Positions 29,009-38,458 of a DNA stretch of 64,000 nucleotides are shown in pieces. Below the pieces are notes generated by a model. It worked only from the letters and a program-made list of their open reading frames with translations. It was not told where the DNA came from and ran no database searches. The DNA lies in the NCBI GenBank assembly GCA_963708075.1, contig OY970194.1, positions 6,016,001 through 6,080,000 on the forward strand, read 5' to 3'. The translations under genes were made by a program, and so were the position numbers. The stretch is from Sedimentisphaerales bacterium (GTDB lineage Bacteria; Planctomycetota; Phycisphaerae; Sedimentisphaerales; Anaerobacaceae). Position 1 is the stretch's first letter, and the number at the start of each line of letters is the position of its first letter.

Positions 29009-29339
29009 ACCGTACTGAACCTAAGAGCCCTGCGGGTCAATAATAACAATCATATTTGTCTTAGATGCGCCTCATCGCTTCGGTGTTCCTCTAATTCCCG
29101 GCCGCACCCGATGAACGACGCAGCCACAAACGCGAACCCCTTGTGGCGACTCAACCAAAATACGCAAGCTGGGTAAATTAACCAGCAGGCCCATTCCTGT
29201 CCAGCATTGCTGTCACTTTATATATCGTTACAACGGGGACCCGAGATAAATCTTGACAAAAGCCTTGAAATTGGTTGGATGTTTAGAGATAATCATTCAT
29301 CGTCGTCGTGCGCTATGCCGATGGATGTGCCGATGCTAT

Positions 29340-29412
29340 TCCCCGATAGCTCAATTGGTAGAGCGGGCGGCTGTTAACCGCCAGGTCGTAGGTTCGAGCC
29401 CTACTCGGGGAG
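29340..29412 (+). tRNA. tRNA-Asn (GTT)
   Basis: Acceptor TCCCCGA/TCGGGGA, D-arm AGCTCAATTGGTAGAGC, anticodon arm GGCGG-CTGTTAA-CCGCC, T-arm GTAGGTTCGAGCCCTAC; CCA not encoded. Confidence 0.97.
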
Positions 29413-29561
29413 TTCCACCCAGCCGACTGTCAAACCAGCGTGTCGGTTACACCATCTGGATCATATGTGAGGGTGATATCAGCCTCACGCAAATTCGGTT
29501 TCTTTCCACTGCGCATCGTCCTGTGTGACCGGGGAAATGGATCACGAGGTCCGATAGTCCA

Positions 29562-29775: not shown

Positions 29776-29804
29776 TTGACATGGATTGGCATTTGGGGTA
29801 AAAT
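29776..29804 (+). promoter_or_regulatory. Strong sigma70 promoter P1 of the fibre locus
   Basis: TTGACA-17-TAAAAT. Confidence 0.7.
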
Positions 29805-29861
29805 GCGCAATAGTGAGAAGTGTGTGATAGAGAAATTAGGCAAAACACAGAACTTTTTATA

Positions 29862-29890
29862 TTGACAACCTGGTTGCGGTATGGTAGTTT
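29862..29890 (+). promoter_or_regulatory. sigma70 promoter P2 of the fibre locus
   Basis: TTGACA-17-TAGTTT with extended -10 TG and AT-rich upstream tract. Confidence 0.65.
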
Positions 29891-30231
29891 TGGTAAATTA
29901 GCGAGCTGCAGATGGTGTGCAGTTCGTCTTGGCCGAGCGTAGGAACGCAGCAGATTCGGCCAAAGGTCAGGAAGGTGAGAGAGTGAGGAGGGTCGCATAA
30001 GCCGACGGATCCTCACGGGATCTGCGGCAAAACTCACTTCTCCCGTTGTCACGACGGATCGTCGAAACTCCCACGGATTGGATGGCCACCAGCGCGATTG
30101 ATGTTGGTGGCGTGCTCTCAGACAACTGAGTGAGTGGACTTTAGCGGAACGCCGTTGAAAGTGCGCACCAGACAGAAGTACGCACGGAGTGAGCAGTACG
30201 GGTGCGTGATTATTTTTGGGGGGCAAGAAAG

Positions 30232-30711
30232 ATGAGTAATCTGGCGAAGTTTCTCGCGATTGTCACCGTGTGGCTGGCGGCGGGCAGTGCCATGGGCAAT
30301 ACCCCGCCTCCGCCTCCGCCTATGGGCCCGGTACCGCCTTTCGTGAAGGTGACCATTCCCAAAGAACCGTTGCAGCTCGGGGATATCTGGTCGGGCGGAG
30401 CGTTTCAGGCCGGAGCACAGGTGAATGTCCATGTTGTGGCGAATTGTCCGTACCAGGTTGATGCTTCCTTCCGGGACCTCAAGCTCGGAACGAGCAATCA
30501 GGTGGTGTCGCCGGAGCAGTTGATGGTAGCCATCAACGGCAAGCGGACGACCCTCGGAGGACGGGTACCGATTGTCTCGTCACGACAGCCGACGCCGCTG
30601 GATGGTGTGGACATCCCGGTGGAACTGCAAGTGGGTGTGAACGATTTCATGAAGTCTCGGGCAGGCCGGTACAACGGGACCCTGGTAATAACCGTGATGG
30701 CTGTGCCATAG
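30232..30711 (+). CDS. Secreted fimbrial/pilin-like beta-sandwich protein (minor subunit candidate)
   Basis: Sec signal (..AGSAMG), poly-Pro N-terminus, VVANCPYQV, C-terminal AGRYNGTLVITV strand reminiscent of CS1/Csu pilins. Confidence 0.65.
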   Translation: MSNLAKFLAIVTVWLAAGSAMGNTPPPPPPMGPVPPFVKVTIPKEPLQLGDIWSGGAFQAGAQVNVHVVANCPYQVDASFRDLKLGTSNQVVSPEQLMVAINGKRTTLGGRVPIVSSRQPTPLDGVDIPVELQVGVNDFMKSRAGRYNGTLVITVMAVP

Positions 30712-31166
30712 CACGGAAGAGGGTGATGAAACAGGGCCTCACAGACCGGCTTCATCAAGCTTTGTCATGTGAATAGTGCTTTTGTAGGTTGCCCAGAACC
30801 TATGGAATGGTGCGATCCCAGGTAGAGGCCCCCCCCTGAAAAGGGACGGGGAGAAAGGAGGTAAGGTGATGACGAAGTGACATCTCGCAGGCTTCTATGA
30901 GCCTGCGGGTCGCTTGCGGGACTCGGCCCCCCTCGAGCGATAGGATGATGTCAAATGCCAAGTGGGAATGAAAATCGCAGGTCAAACTCAGGTGGATTCA
31001 GGGCCGCGATTACTCGGGTGTACAGCGGGCAAACCCGGGTGGATTGTACAACGCAGTGTTGCCCGCAGGAGTGTGCGGCGTAGGCACGTAGCCGAGCCGA
31101 AAAAACTGGGTGTAGCTCCTGTGGCTGTATCGGCCAATTCGGAGCGAGGGTTAAGTTAGAAAGGAA

Positions 31167-31631
31167 GTGAAGATGTTGAAGAGAAGTATTCTTGCAGTAG
31201 CTGTCGTTGCTCTGCTGGCCGTGGGCGTACAAGCTGGCGAAATCAAAACCCATGAGTGGCCCTGCACGTTCGTTGCCCTGGAAATCACCTCGATTCCAGT
31301 CGTGATGGACATTGGCTACTATGTCCGGATCAAGGATCAGGACAAGCTGCGGATCAAGTTGGTGCAGGATGAGCAGGACATCCACAAGTTCAAGGGCTGT
31401 GTGGATATGGTTGTCGAGAGCAACTTCAACCTGGTCCTGAGCGCGAGCATCAGCAAGACCGGCGCGATTGATGGCGATTATGCCGTCAGCCTCGATCCGA
31501 GCAGCGCCAATGCGGGCAGCACGACCGTGAAGGTCTGCGCGACCCTGACGAAGGCCAACCTGACCGGCCAGGCCGCCGGCACCAAAGATGTGCAGGTTGC
31601 GACCGTGAAGATTAAGGTGAAGCCTGCCTAA
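31167..31631 (+). CDS. Secreted fimbrial/pilin-like protein (major subunit candidate)
   Basis: Strong RBS AGAAAGGAAG, Sec signal (..VGVQA), VESNFNLVLSAS, C-terminal VATVKIKV strand, own terminator; start GTG 31167 or ATG 31173. Confidence 0.65.
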   Translation: MKMLKRSILAVAVVALLAVGVQAGEIKTHEWPCTFVALEITSIPVVMDIGYYVRIKDQDKLRIKLVQDEQDIHKFKGCVDMVVESNFNLVLSASISKTGAIDGDYAVSLDPSSANAGSTTVKVCATLTKANLTGQAAGTKDVQVATVKIKVKPA

Positions 31632-31710
31632 CGAAGCCGTACAACGGCTATGCTCAGGGCGACATGACGCCGTACTGGTGTTGATGATCGTCTCTGGGTA
31701 GGTGAATCCC

Positions 31711-31755
31711 AAGGGGAGGATGGACCTACAGGTCCATCTCTCCCCTTCTTCTTAT
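31711..31755 (+). terminator. Intrinsic terminator after the major pilin-like gene
   Basis: AAGGGGAGGATGGACC-TACA-GGTCCATCTCTCCCCTT followed by CTTCTTAT. Confidence 0.7.
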
Positions 31756-31976
31756 GTCTGGGTAAACGGCCCCCGCAGTCGAGTTCCCAGCTACCAGTCA
31801 GCAGGCATCACAGGTGGGGTTCGCGTGCACACGCATGATATCAGGACTGCTGCTCGGTCTCATTCACTTCCTCTGTCGTGTCCGCGAGGATCCAAAGGTC
31901 TGTTTTTGCCGATAAACCCGCCCCCTTCGATCGAGGGTGAAAATAGGGAAAATCGGCGGGATAGAGAGAATAGCCC

Positions 31977-32005
31977 TTGACAAAGCCTTTCAAATTTGGT
32001 AATCT
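31977..32005 (+). promoter_or_regulatory. sigma70 promoter of the chaperone-secretin operon
   Basis: TTGACA-17-TAATCT with extended -10 TG. Confidence 0.65.
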
Positions 32006-32282
32006 TGCTAATATCTTTCCAAGGCCGCCTACAAGATCAGCAGAGTGGTCTTGGGAGGGGGCGGCATGTAAGTTGGGGGTGACTCACGGAAATCACGAGA
32101 AACAGGACAAGTACCTTGTTTGGATTGCCGAAGAGGGGATGGAACTATAAATCCGGACATAGAAGGACTATGTAAGCCGCACGGCAAGGGGCGGTGGTCA
32201 AGGTATTTTTGTGAGGTGGAGCATGGTGGAGAAGGCTGGCAATCAGGTGACGCGAGCGGATGTGCACCTCTTTGAAGGTCGA

Positions 32283-34028
32283 ATGGCACGGGGGATCATG
32301 GTGGGCAGGACAGATATTACTCGGATTATCGGAATATTGGCAATCACGCTGCTGACCGGCAGTTCTGCATTCGGTCAATTCGTGGTTCAACCGATGAAGC
32401 TGCTCGTTCCGGCGCCTCCCGGCAGGCGAGCCCCGGTGCAGGTGATGGTGGAGAATACTACCCGTGACACGGTCCAGAGCGTGGACTTGCGTCTGGCGGA
32501 TATCACCCAGGACGCGAACGGCGTGTGGCAGGCTATCGAGCCGGACGCCCAGGTGGTCACTCGCCCCGACGGCGCCCTCATTGTCAACGTAGGGACGGAG
32601 AGTTACCCGAATCTCGTGGATATCTCAAAGCTGCGAAGCTGCCAGAGCTGGGTGCGTCTGACGCGGAATAAGGTGGAGATTCGGCCGCTGAACCGTGAGC
32701 CGGTCCAGTTGATCATCGACGTGCCGGCCGGCACGCACGGGTACTACTGTGCCGCGTTGCTGGCCCAGGCCCAACTCGGACAACAGATGGTCGAAGGCTA
32801 TATGTCGAACGTCGTGCTGGAGTTCGTGGTCCCGATCATCGTGCAGGTCCAGGGTCGGCTCGAGCGACAAAGCGTGCAACTGACCGACGTTGGCCTGGAG
32901 TTCCGGCCGCAGGATGAGAGGATAGAGCCCGCCACGCTCGTGAGTCTATCCGTCAAGAATGACGGCGGAACCTACTCCATGCTCCGGGGTTATGCCCGTG
33001 TCTGGGGAAAGCTGGGAGGACATTGGCGCAAGATCGCCGATCGTGAGTTCTCCGGCGACATCAGCATCATCCCGGGCGCGGACTTTCGTATGAAGACGGA
33101 TGTCGGCTGTGCGCTGGGCGCCGGCGACTACAAAGTGGAGGGATACCTGTTTGTCGATGGTGCACAAGGTTCCGGCTTCTCCAAGGAATTGACCTTTGCC
33201 GGCGATCCTCGCGTGCGTGGGCCGGTCAAGGGGCTCGGGGCATTGGACCTCGATCCGATGGAAGTCATCCTGGATATCCGGCCCGGTCAGACGCGGTCAG
33301 CCACGCTTCTGGTGGCCAACGCGTACGAGGAACCCATCGATGTCACTGTAAACGTGAGCCTGCCGGATCAGATGGTGGACAAGGCCACAGATATCTTGCG
33401 GGGCGACCAATTCGATTGCACCAGTTGGCTGAAGGTCGAGCCCCGGACATTCAGGTTGGAAGGCAAGCAGCGTACGAACCTGAAGATCCTCGCCGAGATG
33501 CCGGCCGATGCCACGAACCCGAGCTACTATGCCATGATTCGGCTGCACGCCAGGCATGTGGCGGACGGGCAAGAGGCGGGGAGAACGGACAGCCGGATAT
33601 GCATCCAGAACAAGGATACGCCCGGCAACATTCGGATCGAGTCGTTCCCGCTGCGGCTGGCGGAGTTGACGCCGAGCCGGTATTCGGTGGTCGCTCAGTT
33701 CGGCAACTACGGCAGCACGCACGTGCAGCCGACCTGCCGCGCGTACCTGAGCGCCGTCCCCAGCAACGAAGTGGTCAAGAGATTCAATCTGAGCAATGAT
33801 GTCCTCTCGCAGGGCGGGCTCCTGCTGCCTTTGGAGACCCGCAACTTCAGAGGGGTCATGGATATCTCGGGGATGGCCCCCGGGACGTATCGTCTGACGA
33901 TCATGCTGACGCACGATAAGGCGCAGAGGGCCCTGAAGCAGATCATTCTGGACATCAAGGCCACAGCGGATCGTAAGACGGTCGAGACAACTGAGATTAC
34001 CGGTGCGCCGGTCCAGATAAAACTGTAG
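32283..34028 (+). CDS. Periplasmic protein with two tandem PapD/COG3121-like fimbrial chaperone modules
   Basis: Signal peptide (..SSAFG); repeated pattern FVVQPMKL/LDLDPMEV, SCQSWVRL/DCTSWLKV, VPAGTHGYY/MPADATNPSYY, VKNDG/FGNYG, GDYKV/GTYRL; start could be 32298. Confidence 0.7.
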   Translation: MARGIMVGRTDITRIIGILAITLLTGSSAFGQFVVQPMKLLVPAPPGRRAPVQVMVENTTRDTVQSVDLRLADITQDANGVWQAIEPDAQVVTRPDGALIVNVGTESYPNLVDISKLRSCQSWVRLTRNKVEIRPLNREPVQLIIDVPAGTHGYYCAALLAQAQLGQQMVEGYMSNVVLEFVVPIIVQVQGRLERQSVQLTDVGLEFRPQDERIEPATLVSLSVKNDGGTYSMLRGYARVWGKLGGHWRKIADREFSGDISIIPGADFRMKTDVGCALGAGDYKVEGYLFVDGAQGSGFSKELTFAGDPRVRGPVKGLGALDLDPMEVILDIRPGQTRSATLLVANAYEEPIDVTVNVSLPDQMVDKATDILRGDQFDCTSWLKVEPRTFRLEGKQRTNLKILAEMPADATNPSYYAMIRLHARHVADGQEAGRTDSRICIQNKDTPGNIRIESFPLRLAELTPSRYSVVAQFGNYGSTHVQPTCRAYLSAVPSNEVVKRFNLSNDVLSQGGLLLPLETRNFRGVMDISGMAPGTYRLTIMLTHDKAQRALKQIILDIKATADRKTVETTEITGAPVQIKL

Positions 34029-34132
34029 CATGCCGCGGGGTTGGCATTTGCTTAAAGCAAGGCGCGGGATTGCCGATATTCGAACTGGCCGTGGGATGGC
34101 GTAGTTACGGCTGCTGAAAGGGACGTTGACCT

Positions 34133-37100
34133 ATGGCGAAATATATCGGTAAAACATTATCGGGCGGGGTGATAGCTCTGTGCGTAATCCTCCTGTTGAC
34201 GCCAGAGAGCCACGGCGTCGGCGGAAAGGCCATAACGCGCATCATCTCCGGAAGCGTCGGTGAGGCCGGCGTGACCATGCAGGGCTTCCCTGTGAGTCCG
34301 GCCCCCGTGACGGACGACAACGGCGTGTACAGCGTCGCGGTCAAGTATGGCTGGAGCGGAACAGTCACACCCACCAAGCCGGGCTACACGTTCGAGCCGA
34401 AGCAGCGCGCCTATTCCAACGTCATTGAAGACAAGAGCGGGGACGATTACGTGGCGACCCTGCAGACATTCACCATCGCCGGCACGACGGAGAAGCCCAA
34501 CGTGAAACTGCGCGGCCTGCCCGATGACCCGAACAGCGATGCCGACGGTCGGTACAGCGTCAAGGTGCCCTTCGGCTGGAACGGCACCGTCATGCCCGAA
34601 CTGAAGGGGTTCCGTTTCGAGCCGCCTTCGAAGGACTATACCACAGTCAACGACAACAAGATGAGCGAAAACTATGCCGCTCGGATGCAGACCTTCGCGA
34701 TCGCCGGTTCCGTCGGCGCCGAAGGGGTCGTGATGAAGGGGTTCGCCACCGAGGTGAAGACGAACAAGGACGGGATCTATCGCGTGGAGGTACCCTTCGA
34801 GTGGAGCGGAAAAGTCGCGCCCGTCAAGGAAGGGCATGATTTCACGCCCGAGTTCCAGGAGTACTCGGCGGTGACGGACAACTACGAGAACCAGGACTAC
34901 GTGGCGCACGTGTTCACATTCGAGATCTCCGGCAGCGCGGGTATGGGCGGCGTGCTCATGGCGGGCCTGCCCGGCGAGCCGATGACTGACCTCGATGGTC
35001 GATTCACGGCGACCGTGGAATATGGGTGGTCTGGAAAGGTCACGCCGACGAAGGCGGGCTACAGTTTCAAGCCCTCCGTCATCGAGATTACAAAGATCAC
35101 GGAGAACAAGCCGAACCAGGACTGCGCGGCGTCCATCAATAAGTACAAGATCTCGGGAACGACGGGGATCGGCGGGGTGAAGCTGACCGGTCTGTCCGAG
35201 GAGGTAACCAGCGGGTCGACAGGCTCCTATACGGCGACGGTCGAGTACGGCTGGAATGGGACCGTCACACCCGAAAAGGAAGGGTACACCTTCGAGCCGC
35301 AGAGCCTGTTCCTTGGCCCCGTGGAGAAGGACCTGCCCAAGCAGGATTTCAAGTCCAAGGCTGTGACATCCACCCTCTCGGGCAACGTCGGTCTTGCCGG
35401 CGTGGAGATGAAGGGCCTGCCCGGCCGGATCATCTCCCAGCAGGACGGGTCCTACACCGTCGAGGTCCCCTTCAAGTGGGATGGAGTCGTCACCCCGATC
35501 AAAGAGGGGTACACGTTTGACCCGGCCAAGAAAGAGTATACCGATGTCGCGGAGTCCGCGACGGCCGAGGACTACACGCACATGGTCAAGCAATACACCA
35601 TCGTCGGCCGCACCACGACCGACAAGGGAGCTCCGATTGCCGACGTGTTCATCATGACCGACAAGCAGGGCGTCTCGGCGGTGAGCGGCTCCAACGGCGA
35701 GTTCACCTTAAGCGTGGACCACGGCTCGCAGATCAAGATCACGCCGACGAAAGACGGGTGCACCTTCGTCCCGCTTGTGAAGGCGGTCGGGCCCGTGACA
35801 CAGAACGTGGCTAACCAACTCTTCTCCGGCAAGGTGCGGATGGTCGCCATCACAGACAGTATCGTGGTGGATGACGAGCCGGTGCAGGGCGTCACAGTCA
35901 AAGACAAGGACGGTACCTACTCTGCCGTCACCAATGCCAAGGGTATCTACTCCATCCAGGTCCCCTATGGCTGGACCGGCGAGTTGTTCTGGACCAAGCC
36001 GGGATTCGAATTCGATCCCGCGAGCGAACTCCATCAGAACATTACGGAGAACATTGACAGGACGGGCACGCAACCGGTGGCCAAGCCGAGTACCGAGCCG
36101 GCCGTCAAACCAGCGGTAGGCACGCCGGAGCCGGTTGTCAAGCCGGCAGGGACCACTCCGGGGACGACCACGAAGCCGGCGTTGACTGTACAGGAAATAC
36201 TGCGGGGCCAGAGCCAGAAGCTGCCCGAGGCCACGACGACGGTGGCAAAGCCGCCGGAACCCGCTGTGGCAGTCGACCCGGAGAGGGCCCTCCTTATCAA
36301 GCTGCTTGAGGATTACAAACGCAAGACGGGCGCCGTAGTGGACGTGAATACTGCTCTCGGAACGGCGCCTGTGATTCAGCCTGGCAATGTTCAGAGCAAC
36401 TTGGGCCCGATCGTGAGCGGGACCTTCGCCGGCAGCGTGCGCGATGTGCTGAGGCAGGTCATGCAGCAGACCGGGGCAAAGGTGTACGCGGATGCCACGG
36501 TCAAGGCCGAGCAGATCCAGCCGGTGCCGATCCAGGGCATGCCCATGGCGTCGGCTCTGCCGCTGATCCTGAAAGGCACGACCTATCAGTTCCGCCACAT
36601 CGAAGCGCCGGAGGAAGCCTGGCAGGTCTTCCGTGCCATCAGCAACAACTTTGCGGACACCGATCTGCGGCAGGCATTGCAGGATATCGGCGCCATGGCG
36701 GGGGTGTCCATCATCCCGGATGAGACCGTGACCGGACGCGTTTGGGCGGACCTGCAGGGGGTTCCTCTGGAAGTTGCCCTGGAGACGATTCTGGCCGGTA
36801 CTCCGTACGTGGTCAAGAGCACGCCGAACTACTACCTCGTAGCCGACCGCAAGGTTGACGGCAGCGCCTTTGACAAGATCAGTGAGACCCGCCGTGTCCG
36901 GCTCAACTACATCTCGCCGAACTCGGCCCGGAGCCTTCTGTCCTCGGCATTCAGTGCGTATGTCCAGGCCGAAATGGATCCGAACAGCCATACCGTGACG
37001 GTTACTGCTCCCGCGGCGCTGGCGGAACGCATCGCGGGGGAAATCAAAGCGCTGGACATCCGGCCGCAGCACGTGCTTCTTGACGCACGCATTGTGGCGA

Positions 37101-37900
37101 TGGATCGAGGCGACCTGTTGAACATCGGCGTCGAGTGGGGCATGCCCACCGCACAGTTGGGATTCTACGGAAACTCTATTGAGCGCGGCACGCGGCCTAC
37201 CGGAGAAGCTGACCCGGCCGGCAGTTGGCCCTGGGGCGTCTCGGTGGGGCTGTCTTTTGACAACACCTTCACCAACTCTCTCAACGCCGCCCTCAACCTG
37301 CTCACGTCAAACAGCAAGGCTGACATCATCTCGAGCCCGCAAGTCGTGGCTCGGGACGGCGAACGGTCCAGGATCCAGGCCATCACGGAAGAGTATTACA
37401 TGATGACCGCCCCGGTCAACCAGAGCATGTTCTACACGCAGTCGCAGCTTGAGACGATCAAGTCCGGCACGACGCTCGAGATCACGCCGCTCATCGGGGA
37501 CAACAATGACATCCGATTGGACCTGGCCGTCGAGGTCAGCGACAGCATCCCGCGAGGCCGGGGCAGCGATCTGCCCGTGGTGACGCGGCGCACCGCCCAG
37601 AACTCCGTGGTGATCCGGGACGGCGGTACGGTGGCTTTGGCCGGGTTGACCGAGAACCGCACGAGGGACACGGAGAAGCGCGTTCCCTTCTTCAGCAATC
37701 TCCCGGGCATCGGTGGCCTGTTCCGCAACAACGAGACCGACAAAGCGATGCGTGAAATCGCCGTATTCGTCACGGTGCGCATCGTGCCGGAGCACGGCAT
37801 GATCGCCGGACCGCTCCCCACGATGGGTCAGAACGGCGGGGTCATGCCGTCGGCCGGCGATTCGTTCTCGCAGGAACTGAAGGACAGTCTGCAGCGATAA
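34133..37900 (+). CDS. Secretin (type II/III secretion protein D family) with eight N-terminal beta-sandwich repeats
   Basis: C-terminal QHVLLDARIV, SSPQVVARDG, SGTTLEITPLI, DGGTVALAGL, VPFFSNLPGIGGLF, EIAVFVT; N0/STN-like FADTDLRQALQDI; N-terminal ~75-aa repeats. Confidence 0.88.
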   Translation: MAKYIGKTLSGGVIALCVILLLTPESHGVGGKAITRIISGSVGEAGVTMQGFPVSPAPVTDDNGVYSVAVKYGWSGTVTPTKPGYTFEPKQRAYSNVIEDKSGDDYVATLQTFTIAGTTEKPNVKLRGLPDDPNSDADGRYSVKVPFGWNGTVMPELKGFRFEPPSKDYTTVNDNKMSENYAARMQTFAIAGSVGAEGVVMKGFATEVKTNKDGIYRVEVPFEWSGKVAPVKEGHDFTPEFQEYSAVTDNYENQDYVAHVFTFEISGSAGMGGVLMAGLPGEPMTDLDGRFTATVEYGWSGKVTPTKAGYSFKPSVIEITKITENKPNQDCAASINKYKISGTTGIGGVKLTGLSEEVTSGSTGSYTATVEYGWNGTVTPEKEGYTFEPQSLFLGPVEKDLPKQDFKSKAVTSTLSGNVGLAGVEMKGLPGRIISQQDGSYTVEVPFKWDGVVTPIKEGYTFDPAKKEYTDVAESATAEDYTHMVKQYTIVGRTTTDKGAPIADVFIMTDKQGVSAVSGSNGEFTLSVDHGSQIKITPTKDGCTFVPLVKAVGPVTQNVANQLFSGKVRMVAITDSIVVDDEPVQGVTVKDKDGTYSAVTNAKGIYSIQVPYGWTGELFWTKPGFEFDPASELHQNITENIDRTGTQPVAKPSTEPAVKPAVGTPEPVVKPAGTTPGTTTKPALTVQEILRGQSQKLPEATTTVAKPPEPAVAVDPERALLIKLLEDYKRKTGAVVDVNTALGTAPVIQPGNVQSNLGPIVSGTFAGSVRDVLRQVMQQTGAKVYADATVKAEQIQPVPIQGMPMASALPLILKGTTYQFRHIEAPEEAWQVFRAISNNFADTDLRQALQDIGAMAGVSIIPDETVTGRVWADLQGVPLEVALETILAGTPYVVKSTPNYYLVADRKVDGSAFDKISETRRVRLNYISPNSARSLLSSAFSAYVQAEMDPNSHTVTVTAPAALAERIAGEIKALDIRPQHVLLDARIVAMDRGDLLNIGVEWGMPTAQLGFYGNSIERGTRPTGEADPAGSWPWGVSVGLSFDNTFTNSLNAALNLLTSNSKADIISSPQVVARDGERSRIQAITEEYYMMTAPVNQSMFYTQSQLETIKSGTTLEITPLIGDNNDIRLDLAVEVSDSIPRGRGSDLPVVTRRTAQNSVVIRDGGTVALAGLTENRTRDTEKRVPFFSNLPGIGGLFRNNETDKAMREIAVFVTVRIVPEHGMIAGPLPTMGQNGGVMPSAGDSFSQELKDSLQR

Positions 37901-37929
37901 TGAGATAGAGGATAGTGGAATGGTGGGCC

Positions 37930-38382
37930 ATGCCTGCCGTACGAACAGTGAGGAGTATCGAACCCGTGCAAGCTGGACATAGACACATACTGATGCTGCT
38001 GCTGATCGTGCTGGCGCTGGAGGCGGTGGGCTGTAGCAATGGGCCCCAATGGCCGGCGTTAGGACAAAGAGAACAATCCAGGGACCTGCAGGTGCAACAG
38101 CGGGTCGGCGGGCAGGCAATCGATTTGAAGGCCGACGAGGTCGTCCGCATCATGCGCCGGATCGGGCTCATCGATGACCAGATTCTGACCCTCGGTCCGA
38201 CCCTGCGCGACGCGATGCGGGCCACCGGAGCTGCCGCGCTCGTGCGCAGCGGACGGCCGGAAGTCGTGTTCGCTGTCAGCGACGAGCATCTGTTCGTCCA
38301 GTCCCGGTCGCAGGGCAGCTTCATCTACGACCTGAAGGAGAAGCGGTTCATCCCTGTCCCGCCAATGCCTGCAGAGTACTGA
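37930..38382 (+). CDS. Putative lipoprotein (pilotin candidate)
   Basis: Hydrophobic stretch plus lipobox AVG-C; directly after the secretin; start uncertain. Confidence 0.6.
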   Translation: MPAVRTVRSIEPVQAGHRHILMLLLIVLALEAVGCSNGPQWPALGQREQSRDLQVQQRVGGQAIDLKADEVVRIMRRIGLIDDQILTLGPTLRDAMRATGAAALVRSGRPEVVFAVSDEHLFVQSRSQGSFIYDLKEKRFIPVPPMPAEY

Positions 38383-38399
38383 TCGCAAACAGCTTCGTG

Positions 38400-38458
38400 C
38401 GGTGTGTCGCCCACACCGTTTTTGAACTGAAAGCACCCGGAGGAGGGTGCTTTTTTTA
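38400..38458 (+). terminator. Tandem intrinsic terminators closing the fibre operon
   Basis: CGGTGTG-TCGCC-CACACCG-TTTTT and AAAGCACCC-GGAGGA-GGGTGCTTTTTTT. Confidence 0.8.

Follow-up and report, generated by a model that had tools for sequence, protein, structure and literature searches.

A cluster of five genes in the genome of a Sedimentisphaerales bacterium (Planctomycetota; assembly GCA_963708075.1, contig OY970194.1) combines two small pilin-like proteins and a periplasmic chaperone with a secretin and a lipoprotein. The cluster lies in a window of 64,000 nucleotides (the whole stretch of DNA that was analyzed, positions 6,016,001 to 6,080,000 of the forward strand), to which the coordinates below refer unless they are given as genome or locus coordinates; the genome itself is a single contig of 7.5 Mb that is 92.8% complete by markers. 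All five co-oriented open reading frames that had been reported in a preliminary description of this DNA were recovered on the plus strand, namely those for P0001, a minor pilin-like subunit (30232..30711; 159 amino acids, aa), P0002, the major pilin candidate (31173..31631; 152 aa), with a signal peptide, an N-terminal extension and a six-strand immunoglobulin (Ig)-like core, P0003, a periplasmic tandem chaperone with two WxLIP/PapD-like two-domain modules (32283..34028; 581 aa), P0004, a dedicated secretin recognized by Pfam and by its position in the tree (34133..37900; 1255 aa), and P0005, a small lipoprotein with a conserved lipobox cysteine and a candidate pilotin (37930..38382; 150 aa). 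The signal peptides and the lipobox were read by eye rather than with a predictor. P0001, P0003 and P0005 are each encoded once in the genome, and P0002 is represented by five full-length copies.

The cluster is located between a tRNA-Asn gene (29339-29413), which lies directly upstream, and a convergent gene for a dockerin-like protein; the GC content is near the average and does not indicate recent transfer. The promoter and the double terminator that had been proposed to bound the cluster were both found: a sigma-70-type promoter-like site at 29776..29804 (plus strand) matches 11 of 12 consensus positions and is the best of 9 such sites, against 3.4 expected, and two terminator-like hairpins with U-tracts lie at 38399..38457 (plus strand; z -2.7), although the terminator scan did not list them. 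The five genes do not form one tight operon; gaps of 461 and 651 bp separate genes of the cluster and suggest that it is transcribed as more than one transcript. A possible internal promoter precedes the chaperone gene (31977..32005, plus strand), with a perfect -35 element and a 17-nt spacer, both read by eye, and a weak -10 element; it is not in the list produced by the promoter scan. The first gap (461 bp) holds a conserved structured element that the preliminary description had overlooked, and the spacer between the pilin and chaperone genes (31632-32282) is fairly conserved as well (59-68%) and may hold another regulatory element.

Comparison across genomes confirms that the five genes are a conserved unit. 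The chaperone is present in 28 of 61 related genomes, including this one, and in all 20 related loci fetched the secretin gene is adjacent to the chaperone gene; upstream, both small genes occur in the same order in 10 of these loci, the major pilin alone in 1 and divergent pilins in 2, whereas 7 are cut. In a sample of the phylum, 17 of 401 genomes match the chaperone, and among 17 loci from 16 other genomes of the phylum, 13 encode a chaperone of 413-569 aa together with a secretin, in either order, whereas the remaining 4 encode a chaperone of 276-316 aa beside an usher-like protein of 950-1080 aa (split in two frames in one case), with one of these four barrels scoring above the Pfam Usher cut-off. 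In total, a long chaperone (413-581 aa) is accompanied by an adjacent secretin in 35 of 35 genome loci (20 related, 13 from the phylum and 2 from a scan of genome contigs; in two of them the contig stops short of the secretin domain) and by an usher in 0 of 35. Metagenomes yielded 46 loci, of which 34 are too short and 12 extend for at least 3 kb downstream of a whole chaperone gene; 10 of these 12 (three pairs in the metagenome set are near-duplicates) have a secretin on the same strand within 1.7 kb, and in the other 2 the secretin is on the opposite strand, beside a second chaperone. In L183 and L184, two long-chaperone units face each other and share one secretin. The cassette was also found on one metagenome contig that matches a Rhizobiales cluster, whereas plasmid searches with two chaperones gave no match.

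P0003 had been described as a periplasmic protein with two PapD-like modules. The two chaperone modules were borne out by the structural model, by a fold search and by profile comparison, but the sequence matches WxLIP/DUF916 rather than PapD. The model, built from 92 sequences, has four Ig-like domains (predicted local distance difference test, pLDDT, 87) and no visible C-terminal membrane anchor or helix. The best structural match of domains 1-2 is WxLIP of Enterococcus faecium (9i1y; Z 17.0, root mean square deviation 5.6, 242 aligned residues); the classical pilus chaperones YadV, SafB, EcpB and CupB2 match P0003 at Z 11.7-12.7, and such chaperones, including CsuC and CfaA, reach Z 11-13 on either half of the protein, level with eukaryotic ASH/MSP domains. 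A Foldseek search with the entire chaperone returned mostly ASH-repeat and complement proteins, and compact two-domain matches alone were used. When the profile of the chaperone family (122 sequences) was compared with PDB sequences, WxLIP was the sole match at E <= 0.001 (E 3e-7). Profile comparison within P0003 relates domain 1 to domain 3 (probability 98.5, E 2.8e-15) and domain 2 to domain 4 (probability 93.7, E 1.9e-7), although BLAST of one half against the other was not significant. P0003 is a tandem duplicate that is closer to WxLIP/DUF916 than to PapD.

At the level of Pfam families, PapD_N (PF00345) is unmatched in P0003 and in the homologues scanned, whereas DUF916 (PF06030) matches 1 of 11 homologues above the cut-off and 5 of 11 below it, with P0003 itself unmatched; no WxL domain was matched by Pfam in the cassette proteins scanned, and there is no sortase substrate among the five genes. 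The chaperone family is large, with 1,692 clusters at E <= 0.001 (a count that includes the short, usher-linked forms) and 254 at 1e-30. Close homologues, for which the chaperone sequences alone were read, are found in cultured Alpha- and Gammaproteobacteria (Roseinatronobacter bogoriensis and Halorhodospira).

The two modules of the chaperone differ. A long F-G hairpin with alternating hydrophobic residues is restricted to module 1, where the alternation at positions 175/177/179/181 is kept in 93-99% of the 122 sequences, whereas the equivalent strand of module 2 is polar. We infer that module 1 is the strand-donating chaperone and that module 2 has another job, perhaps docking. Binding of the pilin by module 1 is weakly supported by complex prediction, with a score of 0.52 compared to 0.01 for the best control, at least 72% contact agreement between runs and a partner pLDDT of at least 70; 116 of 157 solved pairs and 2 of 215 mismatched ones reach the score mark, but only 18 of the 157, together with both mismatches, do so at 0.60 or below.

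Both small proteins had been proposed to be strand-complemented subunits, and the model of the mature P0002 (pLDDT 83) agrees with this for the major pilin, with a predicted six-strand core and residues 1-29 unpaired; these residues include invariant or near-invariant alternating positions. The top Foldseek matches of P0002 are the pilin domain of PapG, CfaB and CS17 (E 1.6e-3 to 6e-3), and for both small proteins the nearest named Atlas cluster is SCPU, the archaic-pilin family (0.90 for P0002 and 0.94 for P0001), assignments that are to be taken as leads only; in the named Atlas cluster nearest to P0001, SCPU (PF05229) accounts for 65% of the members. The best PDB match of the P0001 family profile is FimG, a weak one (E 0.05). 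Comparison of the P0001 and P0002 profiles detects no relation (probability 0.2), and P0001 does not match the donor-strand profile. P0001 appears to have no donor strand and is accordingly a candidate cap or initiator. No NCBIfam pilin family scored above its cut-off, and no PDB sequence was matched by the major-pilin profile. Of the 35 genomes chosen, 24 are pilin-positive, and 23 of these 24 also have the chaperone; the other 11 have neither. The four solo copies of P0002 in this genome, which are 37-79% identical, lie at genome positions 7386059-7386899, 5882474-5883036, 945620-946063 and 4209777-4210205.

The acceptor part of the pilin domain also occurs at the end of much larger proteins. 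In 15 of 16 regions from 13 relatives, as well as in one protein of this genome, an acceptor-only pilin domain ends proteins of 383-880 aa within 1-7 residues of the C-terminus, and several of these proteins carry a beta-helix domain. Large secreted proteins with this architecture have the layout of tip adhesins, for which they are candidates. The example in this genome is a secreted beta-helix protein of 647 aa (genome 4102914-4104854), a candidate tip adhesin that is conserved across the genus with a payload of varying size.

A different arrangement is seen in a PEP-CTERM protein (genome 1529212-1529907, minus strand), in which the pilin core comes first and is followed by a linker and then by the N-terminal motif of mature pilins. 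A pattern for this motif, chosen after the PEP-CTERM case had been noticed, occurs 6 times in 9.45 million six-frame residues: in 4 pilins, in the PEP-CTERM protein and in a frame of 72 residues. By its order of segments, the PEP-CTERM protein looks like a circularly permuted, self-complemented pilin that could serve as a fibre terminator or anchor. A pilin domain, together with tetratricopeptide repeats (TPR), was also identified in the periplasmic part of a zf-HC2 anti-sigma factor (genome 1894818-1896377), which is possibly a sensor of the state of the pilin or of the chaperone, or else just the carrier of a borrowed domain.

The identification of P0004 as a secretin of 1255 aa holds: the Pfam Secretin domain (PF00263) matches residues 1057-1218 (E 2.6e-34), with Secretin_N above the cut-off and STN also matched. 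The protein consists of eight prealbumin-like repeats of about 75 residues each, a linker, STN/N domains, the secretin domain and a tail of 37 residues. It scores below the NCBIfam cut-offs for GspD (156 of 351 bits), PilQ (141 of 284), SctC (91 of 238) and MshL (93 of 250). The N-terminal repeats match CooC_C (E 1.3e-8), which hinted at a borrowed C-terminal domain of an usher; we do not count this match because such a fold is widespread, an unrelated protein of this genome has the same repeats, and they are absent from most of the distant cassette secretins. Pieces of P0004 are reused in two proteins, one with the N-terminal repeats behind a sigma/anti-sigma pair (L093:3422-5404) and the other a degenerate secretin fusion (genome 6504123-6506546) that groups inside the cassette branch; borrowing of domains from the cassette locus seems common in this genome. 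The cassette secretins at L167:8598-10340 and L169:5054-6799 are extended at the C-terminus by about 170 residues, which read like a small beta-barrel of the outer membrane.

A homologue of the lipoprotein P0005 is encoded directly 3' of the secretin gene in 18 of 20 relative loci, the remaining two being cut by contig ends. Its presence tracks the secretin tail: 25 of 26 loci with the lipoprotein, all of which belong to one subclade, encode a secretin with a tail of 39-80 residues (one locus was not parsed), whereas in the 13 parsed loci that lack it, the tail does not exceed 9 residues in 11 cases and, in the other 2, has 52 residues and is accompanied by another small lipoprotein. This pattern fits a pilotin that would bind the tail of the secretin. 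In some other cassette loci, TPR proteins are encoded in a similar position.

To place the secretin among those of known machines, namely the type II secretion system (T2SS), the type IV pilus (T4P) and the tight adherence (Tad) pilus, we compared it with other secretins of planctomycete genomes. In a tree of 63 rows, all 27 cassette secretins fall on one side, together with the degenerate long-branch fusion of this genome (SH-aLRT, the Shimodaira-Hasegawa-like approximate likelihood ratio test, 94). After the fusion, two other long branches and eight close cassette rows were taken out and four metagenome rows added, the 23 cassette secretins again fall on one side, apart from 33 others (bootstrap 100, SH-aLRT 98), as they do when six more cassette rows are included and the two long branches are restored (29 versus 35 rows; SH-aLRT 99). 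Within the sampled rows, which do not include secretins of the type III secretion system (T3SS), of phages or of proteobacterial reference systems, the cassette secretins form their own branch apart from the T2SS, T4P and Tad secretins of the same genomes.

The surroundings of the secretin genes point in the same direction. This genome is unusually rich in type IV filament systems, with 15 secretin, 26 ATPase and 32 platform matches; an assembly ATPase lies within 15.3 kb of 12 of 14 secretin loci, whereas the cassette secretin is 465,686 bp away from one and one other secretin 267 kb. An orphan secretin is encoded beside the ribosomal S2/EF-Ts operon (genome 5741013-5742920). As proposed from the sequence of the window, neither an usher nor an ATPase, a platform gene or a class III prepilin motif was found in or near the locus; none of the 35 genome cassette loci contains an ATPase, a platform gene or a prepilin motif, and a set of 95 loci has no platform gene, one ATPase (in L168) and three prepilin motifs, the latter all in usher loci. 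By synteny, by the tree and by the scan for ATPases and prepilins, the secretin travels with the cassette genes and not with T2SS or T4P genes.

A cognate usher was not detected either. Searches of this genome with PF00577 (E <= 1) and with two profiles of divergent ushers found none, and the usher profiles detected no full-length usher in 12 distant cassette genomes. Weak matches of the divergent-usher profile in five relatives are to C-terminal domains, and the two proteins of about 967 aa that were read look like TonB-dependent receptors; these matches were set aside. One match of a divergent-usher profile among the relatives is a second type of usher. Ushers do occur in the genus: in the 9 usher loci fetched, the usher follows its own chaperone of 315-346 aa and, in 8 of the 9, its own pilin, where the contig reaches that far, and these 8 pilins match neither cassette pilin profile. 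Thus, a single genus contains both portals, and each portal is served by a chaperone and a pilin of its own. The divergent usher operons are of two kinds, each with a pilin, a short DUF916-like chaperone and a barrel of 950-1200 aa that is mostly missed by Pfam Usher; several of these operons seem, by eye, to lie just behind a tRNA gene.

The element in the first gap is a leader of about 380 nt, structured and non-coding, in front of the major pilin gene (30786..31162, plus strand). Its identity is 73-75% in 5 of 5 relatives, compared to 61-70% for the flanking genes, and 27 of 95 predicted base pairs show compensatory changes among 10 sequences, a number reached in 0 of 500 shuffles and compared to 5-14 in slid controls; these sequences are kin, and their alignment also served to derive the structure. 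There is good, although not final, evidence from these comparisons that the leader is a conserved structured RNA. It has no match in Rfam at E <= 1. A full copy precedes one solo pilin paralogue and a partial copy another, and a further partial copy (genome 4899884-4900036) has no pilin gene behind it. In close relatives, the leader and pilin are covered by contigs from RNA libraries (4 runs from 4 studies); the leader/pilin stretch was itself used to select the runs, the contigs attest presence and cannot rank expression, and their thin cover of the other cassette genes is uninformative. None of the RNA contigs listed spans the junction between leader and gene with 31 letters on either side.

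Collectively, the predicted folds, the lack of a detectable usher, the separate secretin branch and the gene linkage argue for the hybrid pathway of the preliminary description, in which strand-complemented subunits would leave the cell through a secretin. The subunits would cross the inner membrane by the Sec pathway, as their signal peptides suggest, and module 1 of the chaperone is predicted to lend a strand to the incomplete pilin fold. A fibre would start with an acceptor-only subunit (the small P0001, or else a large adhesin from another part of the genome) and would grow as the N-terminal strand of each incoming pilin displaces the chaperone at the periplasmic face of the secretin. The linear chain would then pass through the secretin channel, driven, by analogy with ushers, by the folding energy of strand exchange and without an ATPase; the usher pathway needs no ATP, and a chain with a thickness of about 2-3 nm fits in the lumen of a secretin, which measures roughly 6-8 nm. 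Docking, which in the usher is the role of the periplasmic domains, may be taken over by the N-domains of the secretin and the additional chaperone module, and the lipoprotein probably pilots the secretin. Two elements of the preliminary description do not carry over to this scheme. The suggested stalk-like appendage finds no supporting evidence, including in the literature on Sedimentisphaerales appendages, where nothing relevant was found among the papers listed, and the label 'planctomycete' is too narrow, because the cassette is also present on the Rhizobiales-like contig and cultured Alpha- and Gammaproteobacteria encode the chaperone.

We estimate the probability that the gene cluster builds a thin donor-strand-exchange fibre exported via its own secretin in place of an usher at roughly 60%. 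Several observations weigh against this interpretation. The matches of P0002 to pilin folds are weak, with no Foldseek match at E <= 0.001 and VIA Z scores of at most 7.1, within background; Pfam pilin families match none of the cassette pilins scanned; and the pass of the module 1-pilin complex may stem from likeness to solved WxLIP-WxL or chaperone-pilin complexes. The permuted strand is found in a single protein and scores 0.1 bits with the donor-strand profile, with no full-length homologue of that protein in 60 genomes of other genera (its own genus was not searched), and the occurrence of a pilin domain inside the zf-HC2 anti-sigma factor indicates that the domain is not confined to fibres. 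The loci include kin and are not independent, and one 334-aa chaperone at a contig end (L101) is followed by neither an usher nor a secretin within 4 kb. The tree has no root, the non-cassette rows were drawn from only six planctomycete genomes, and a profile derived from the cassette was used to cut the fragments. Further secretins are present in every genome checked, several ATPase/platform clusters of this genome have no secretin, such that help in trans is possible, and one of the 46 metagenome loci (L168) has a PilT/PilB-like ATPase 3.6 kb past the secretin. Finally, a real usher is encoded elsewhere in 11 of 23 same-genus relatives, PF00577 missed 3 of 4 usher-like barrels and most ushers of the genus, and a still more divergent usher may exist in a genome that is 92.8% complete.

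Some of these observations would also fit a real strand-exchange fibre whose secretin cooperates with the motor and platform of a T2SS or T4P from another locus, which would push the subunits or the fibre out. The many ATPase and platform matches in this genome, some of them in clusters without a secretin, and the ATPase near the cassette in L168 speak for such an arrangement; however, the lack of motor components and prepilin motifs throughout the 35 genome loci speaks against it, the secretin-less clusters could use the second orphan secretin, and a separate branch of secretins across distant hosts is hardly expected of a partner to varied host motors, so that we regard it as unlikely, even if it is the strongest of the competing explanations. 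Slightly less likely still is that single subunits leave passively through the pore of the secretin and polymerize outside, as in curli or TasA-type fibres, with the chaperone doing no more than keeping them soluble in the periplasm. We know of no driving force that would export an incomplete pilin freed from its chaperone without a motor, and acceptor-only tip proteins imply ordered growth from the base. Export of monomers would nevertheless accommodate the lack of an identified anchoring subunit in the locus, the absence of the N-terminal repeats from most of the distant cassette secretins and the behavior of ElrD, which polymerizes in lysates without other factors (10.64898/2026.10.17.759780).

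It is also conceivable that there is no fibre at all, with the small proteins being self-contained Ig domains (surface-layer components, parts of a periplasmic scaffold or ligands of sensors) and the secretin serving uptake or another kind of export. The faint resemblance to known pilins, the presence of the pilin domain in the anti-sigma factor and the PEP-CTERM protein, and the weak pass in complex prediction would be compatible with this view, but the unpaired, conserved N-terminal strand, the homology of the chaperone to WxLIP, the ushers in sister loci with the same chaperone family, and the joint presence and absence of pilin and chaperone (23 of 24 genomes and the other 11 of the 35) make it improbable. 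The least plausible alternative is an ordinary chaperone-usher system with an undetected usher elsewhere and the secretin as a passenger: Pfam does miss divergent ushers, and 11 of the 23 same-genus relatives encode one, but three profiles find none in this single-contig genome and no full-length ones in the 12 distant genomes, the linkage to a secretin holds in 35 of 35 loci with both gene orders, and the ushers that were found come with chaperones of their own.

With export of a strand-exchange fibre through the secretin as the preferred interpretation, the cassette can be compared with known systems. With chaperone-usher pili (class 5 CFA/I and CS1, archaic Csu, type 1 and P), it shares Sec-exported Ig-like subunits with a predicted free N-terminal strand, the fold of a soluble two-domain periplasmic chaperone, acceptor-only tip adhesins and a locus without an ATPase; it differs in that a secretin and a lipoprotein take the place of the usher, the chaperone is a double one whose sequence is related to DUF916 and does not match PapD_N, and extra pilins and tip proteins are scattered over the genome. 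The WxL/Elr pilus of Bacillota has the closest chaperone, ElrE/WxLIP, by fold (Z 17.0) and by profile (E 3e-7), and also relies on donor-strand exchange without an usher, in a single-membrane host, with a membrane-anchored single chaperone and sortase anchoring (10.64898/2026.10.17.759780). In the cassette, by contrast, the chaperone is soluble and tandem, there is an outer membrane to cross, and no WxL match was obtained with Pfam. The same report calls the Elr system confined to Bacillota, and the word secretin does not appear in its main text. The Pam pili of bacteria of the candidate phyla radiation (CPR) are likewise assembled by usher-free strand exchange with PapD-like chaperones and have an acceptor-only single-domain tip pilin, PamT, that resembles P0001, but their chaperones are membrane-anchored, their pilins have two domains and there is no outer membrane; the main text of the paper that describes them has 0 occurrences of the word secretin (PMC13278184).

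With the secretin machines (T2SS GspD, T4P PilQ, Tad RcpA, T3SS SctC and filamentous phage pIV), the cassette has in common the secretin domain with STN and N domains and an adjacent lipoprotein (of the TPR type in some loci) that is likely a pilotin. Unlike these machines, the cassette secretin has no linked ATPase, inner-membrane platform, prepilin or needle, scores below all NCBIfam cut-offs and forms a separate branch among the sampled secretins (with T3SS and phage not in the tree). The system works like a chaperone-usher pilus but lies outside that family as well as outside the WxL, T2SS and T4P families. A literature search, which did not extend to most subscription journals and supplements, found no report linking secretins with PapD or DUF916 chaperones, or orphan secretins with chaperones and fimbriae, and we could not find a description of a secretin as the exit route for a strand-exchange fibre. 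The acceptor-only tip-adhesin candidates, the permuted pilin, the pilotin-like lipoprotein, the structured leader RNA and the chaperone homologues in cultured Proteobacteria are new here.

In the textbook view, strand-exchange pili of two-membrane bacteria need an usher, and secretins need an ATP-driven inner-membrane machine; the cassette breaks both rules, and the sister loci that combine the same chaperone family with a real usher show a swap of the portal. In its broadest form, for which we consider the odds to be about even, the proposal is one of a new class of secretin machine and a new pilus pathway: a secretin without ATPase or platform would be both the assembly site and the channel of a folding-powered fibre, a C-terminal acceptor domain would recruit tip cargoes genome-wide, the undescribed 380-nt RNA would control the major pilin, and the system, which could substitute for the usher, would have spread among two-membrane bacteria of several phyla. 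The presence of chaperone homologues in cultured non-pathogens makes the system testable, and the C-terminal tag, which may load cargoes of 300-800 residues on the fibre tip, could serve surface display. If the interpretation is correct, the catalytic role of the usher would be replaceable by a plain gated pore, the cassette would be the simplest system for asking how the gate of a secretin opens, and many unassigned secretins and small hypothetical proteins would gain a function.

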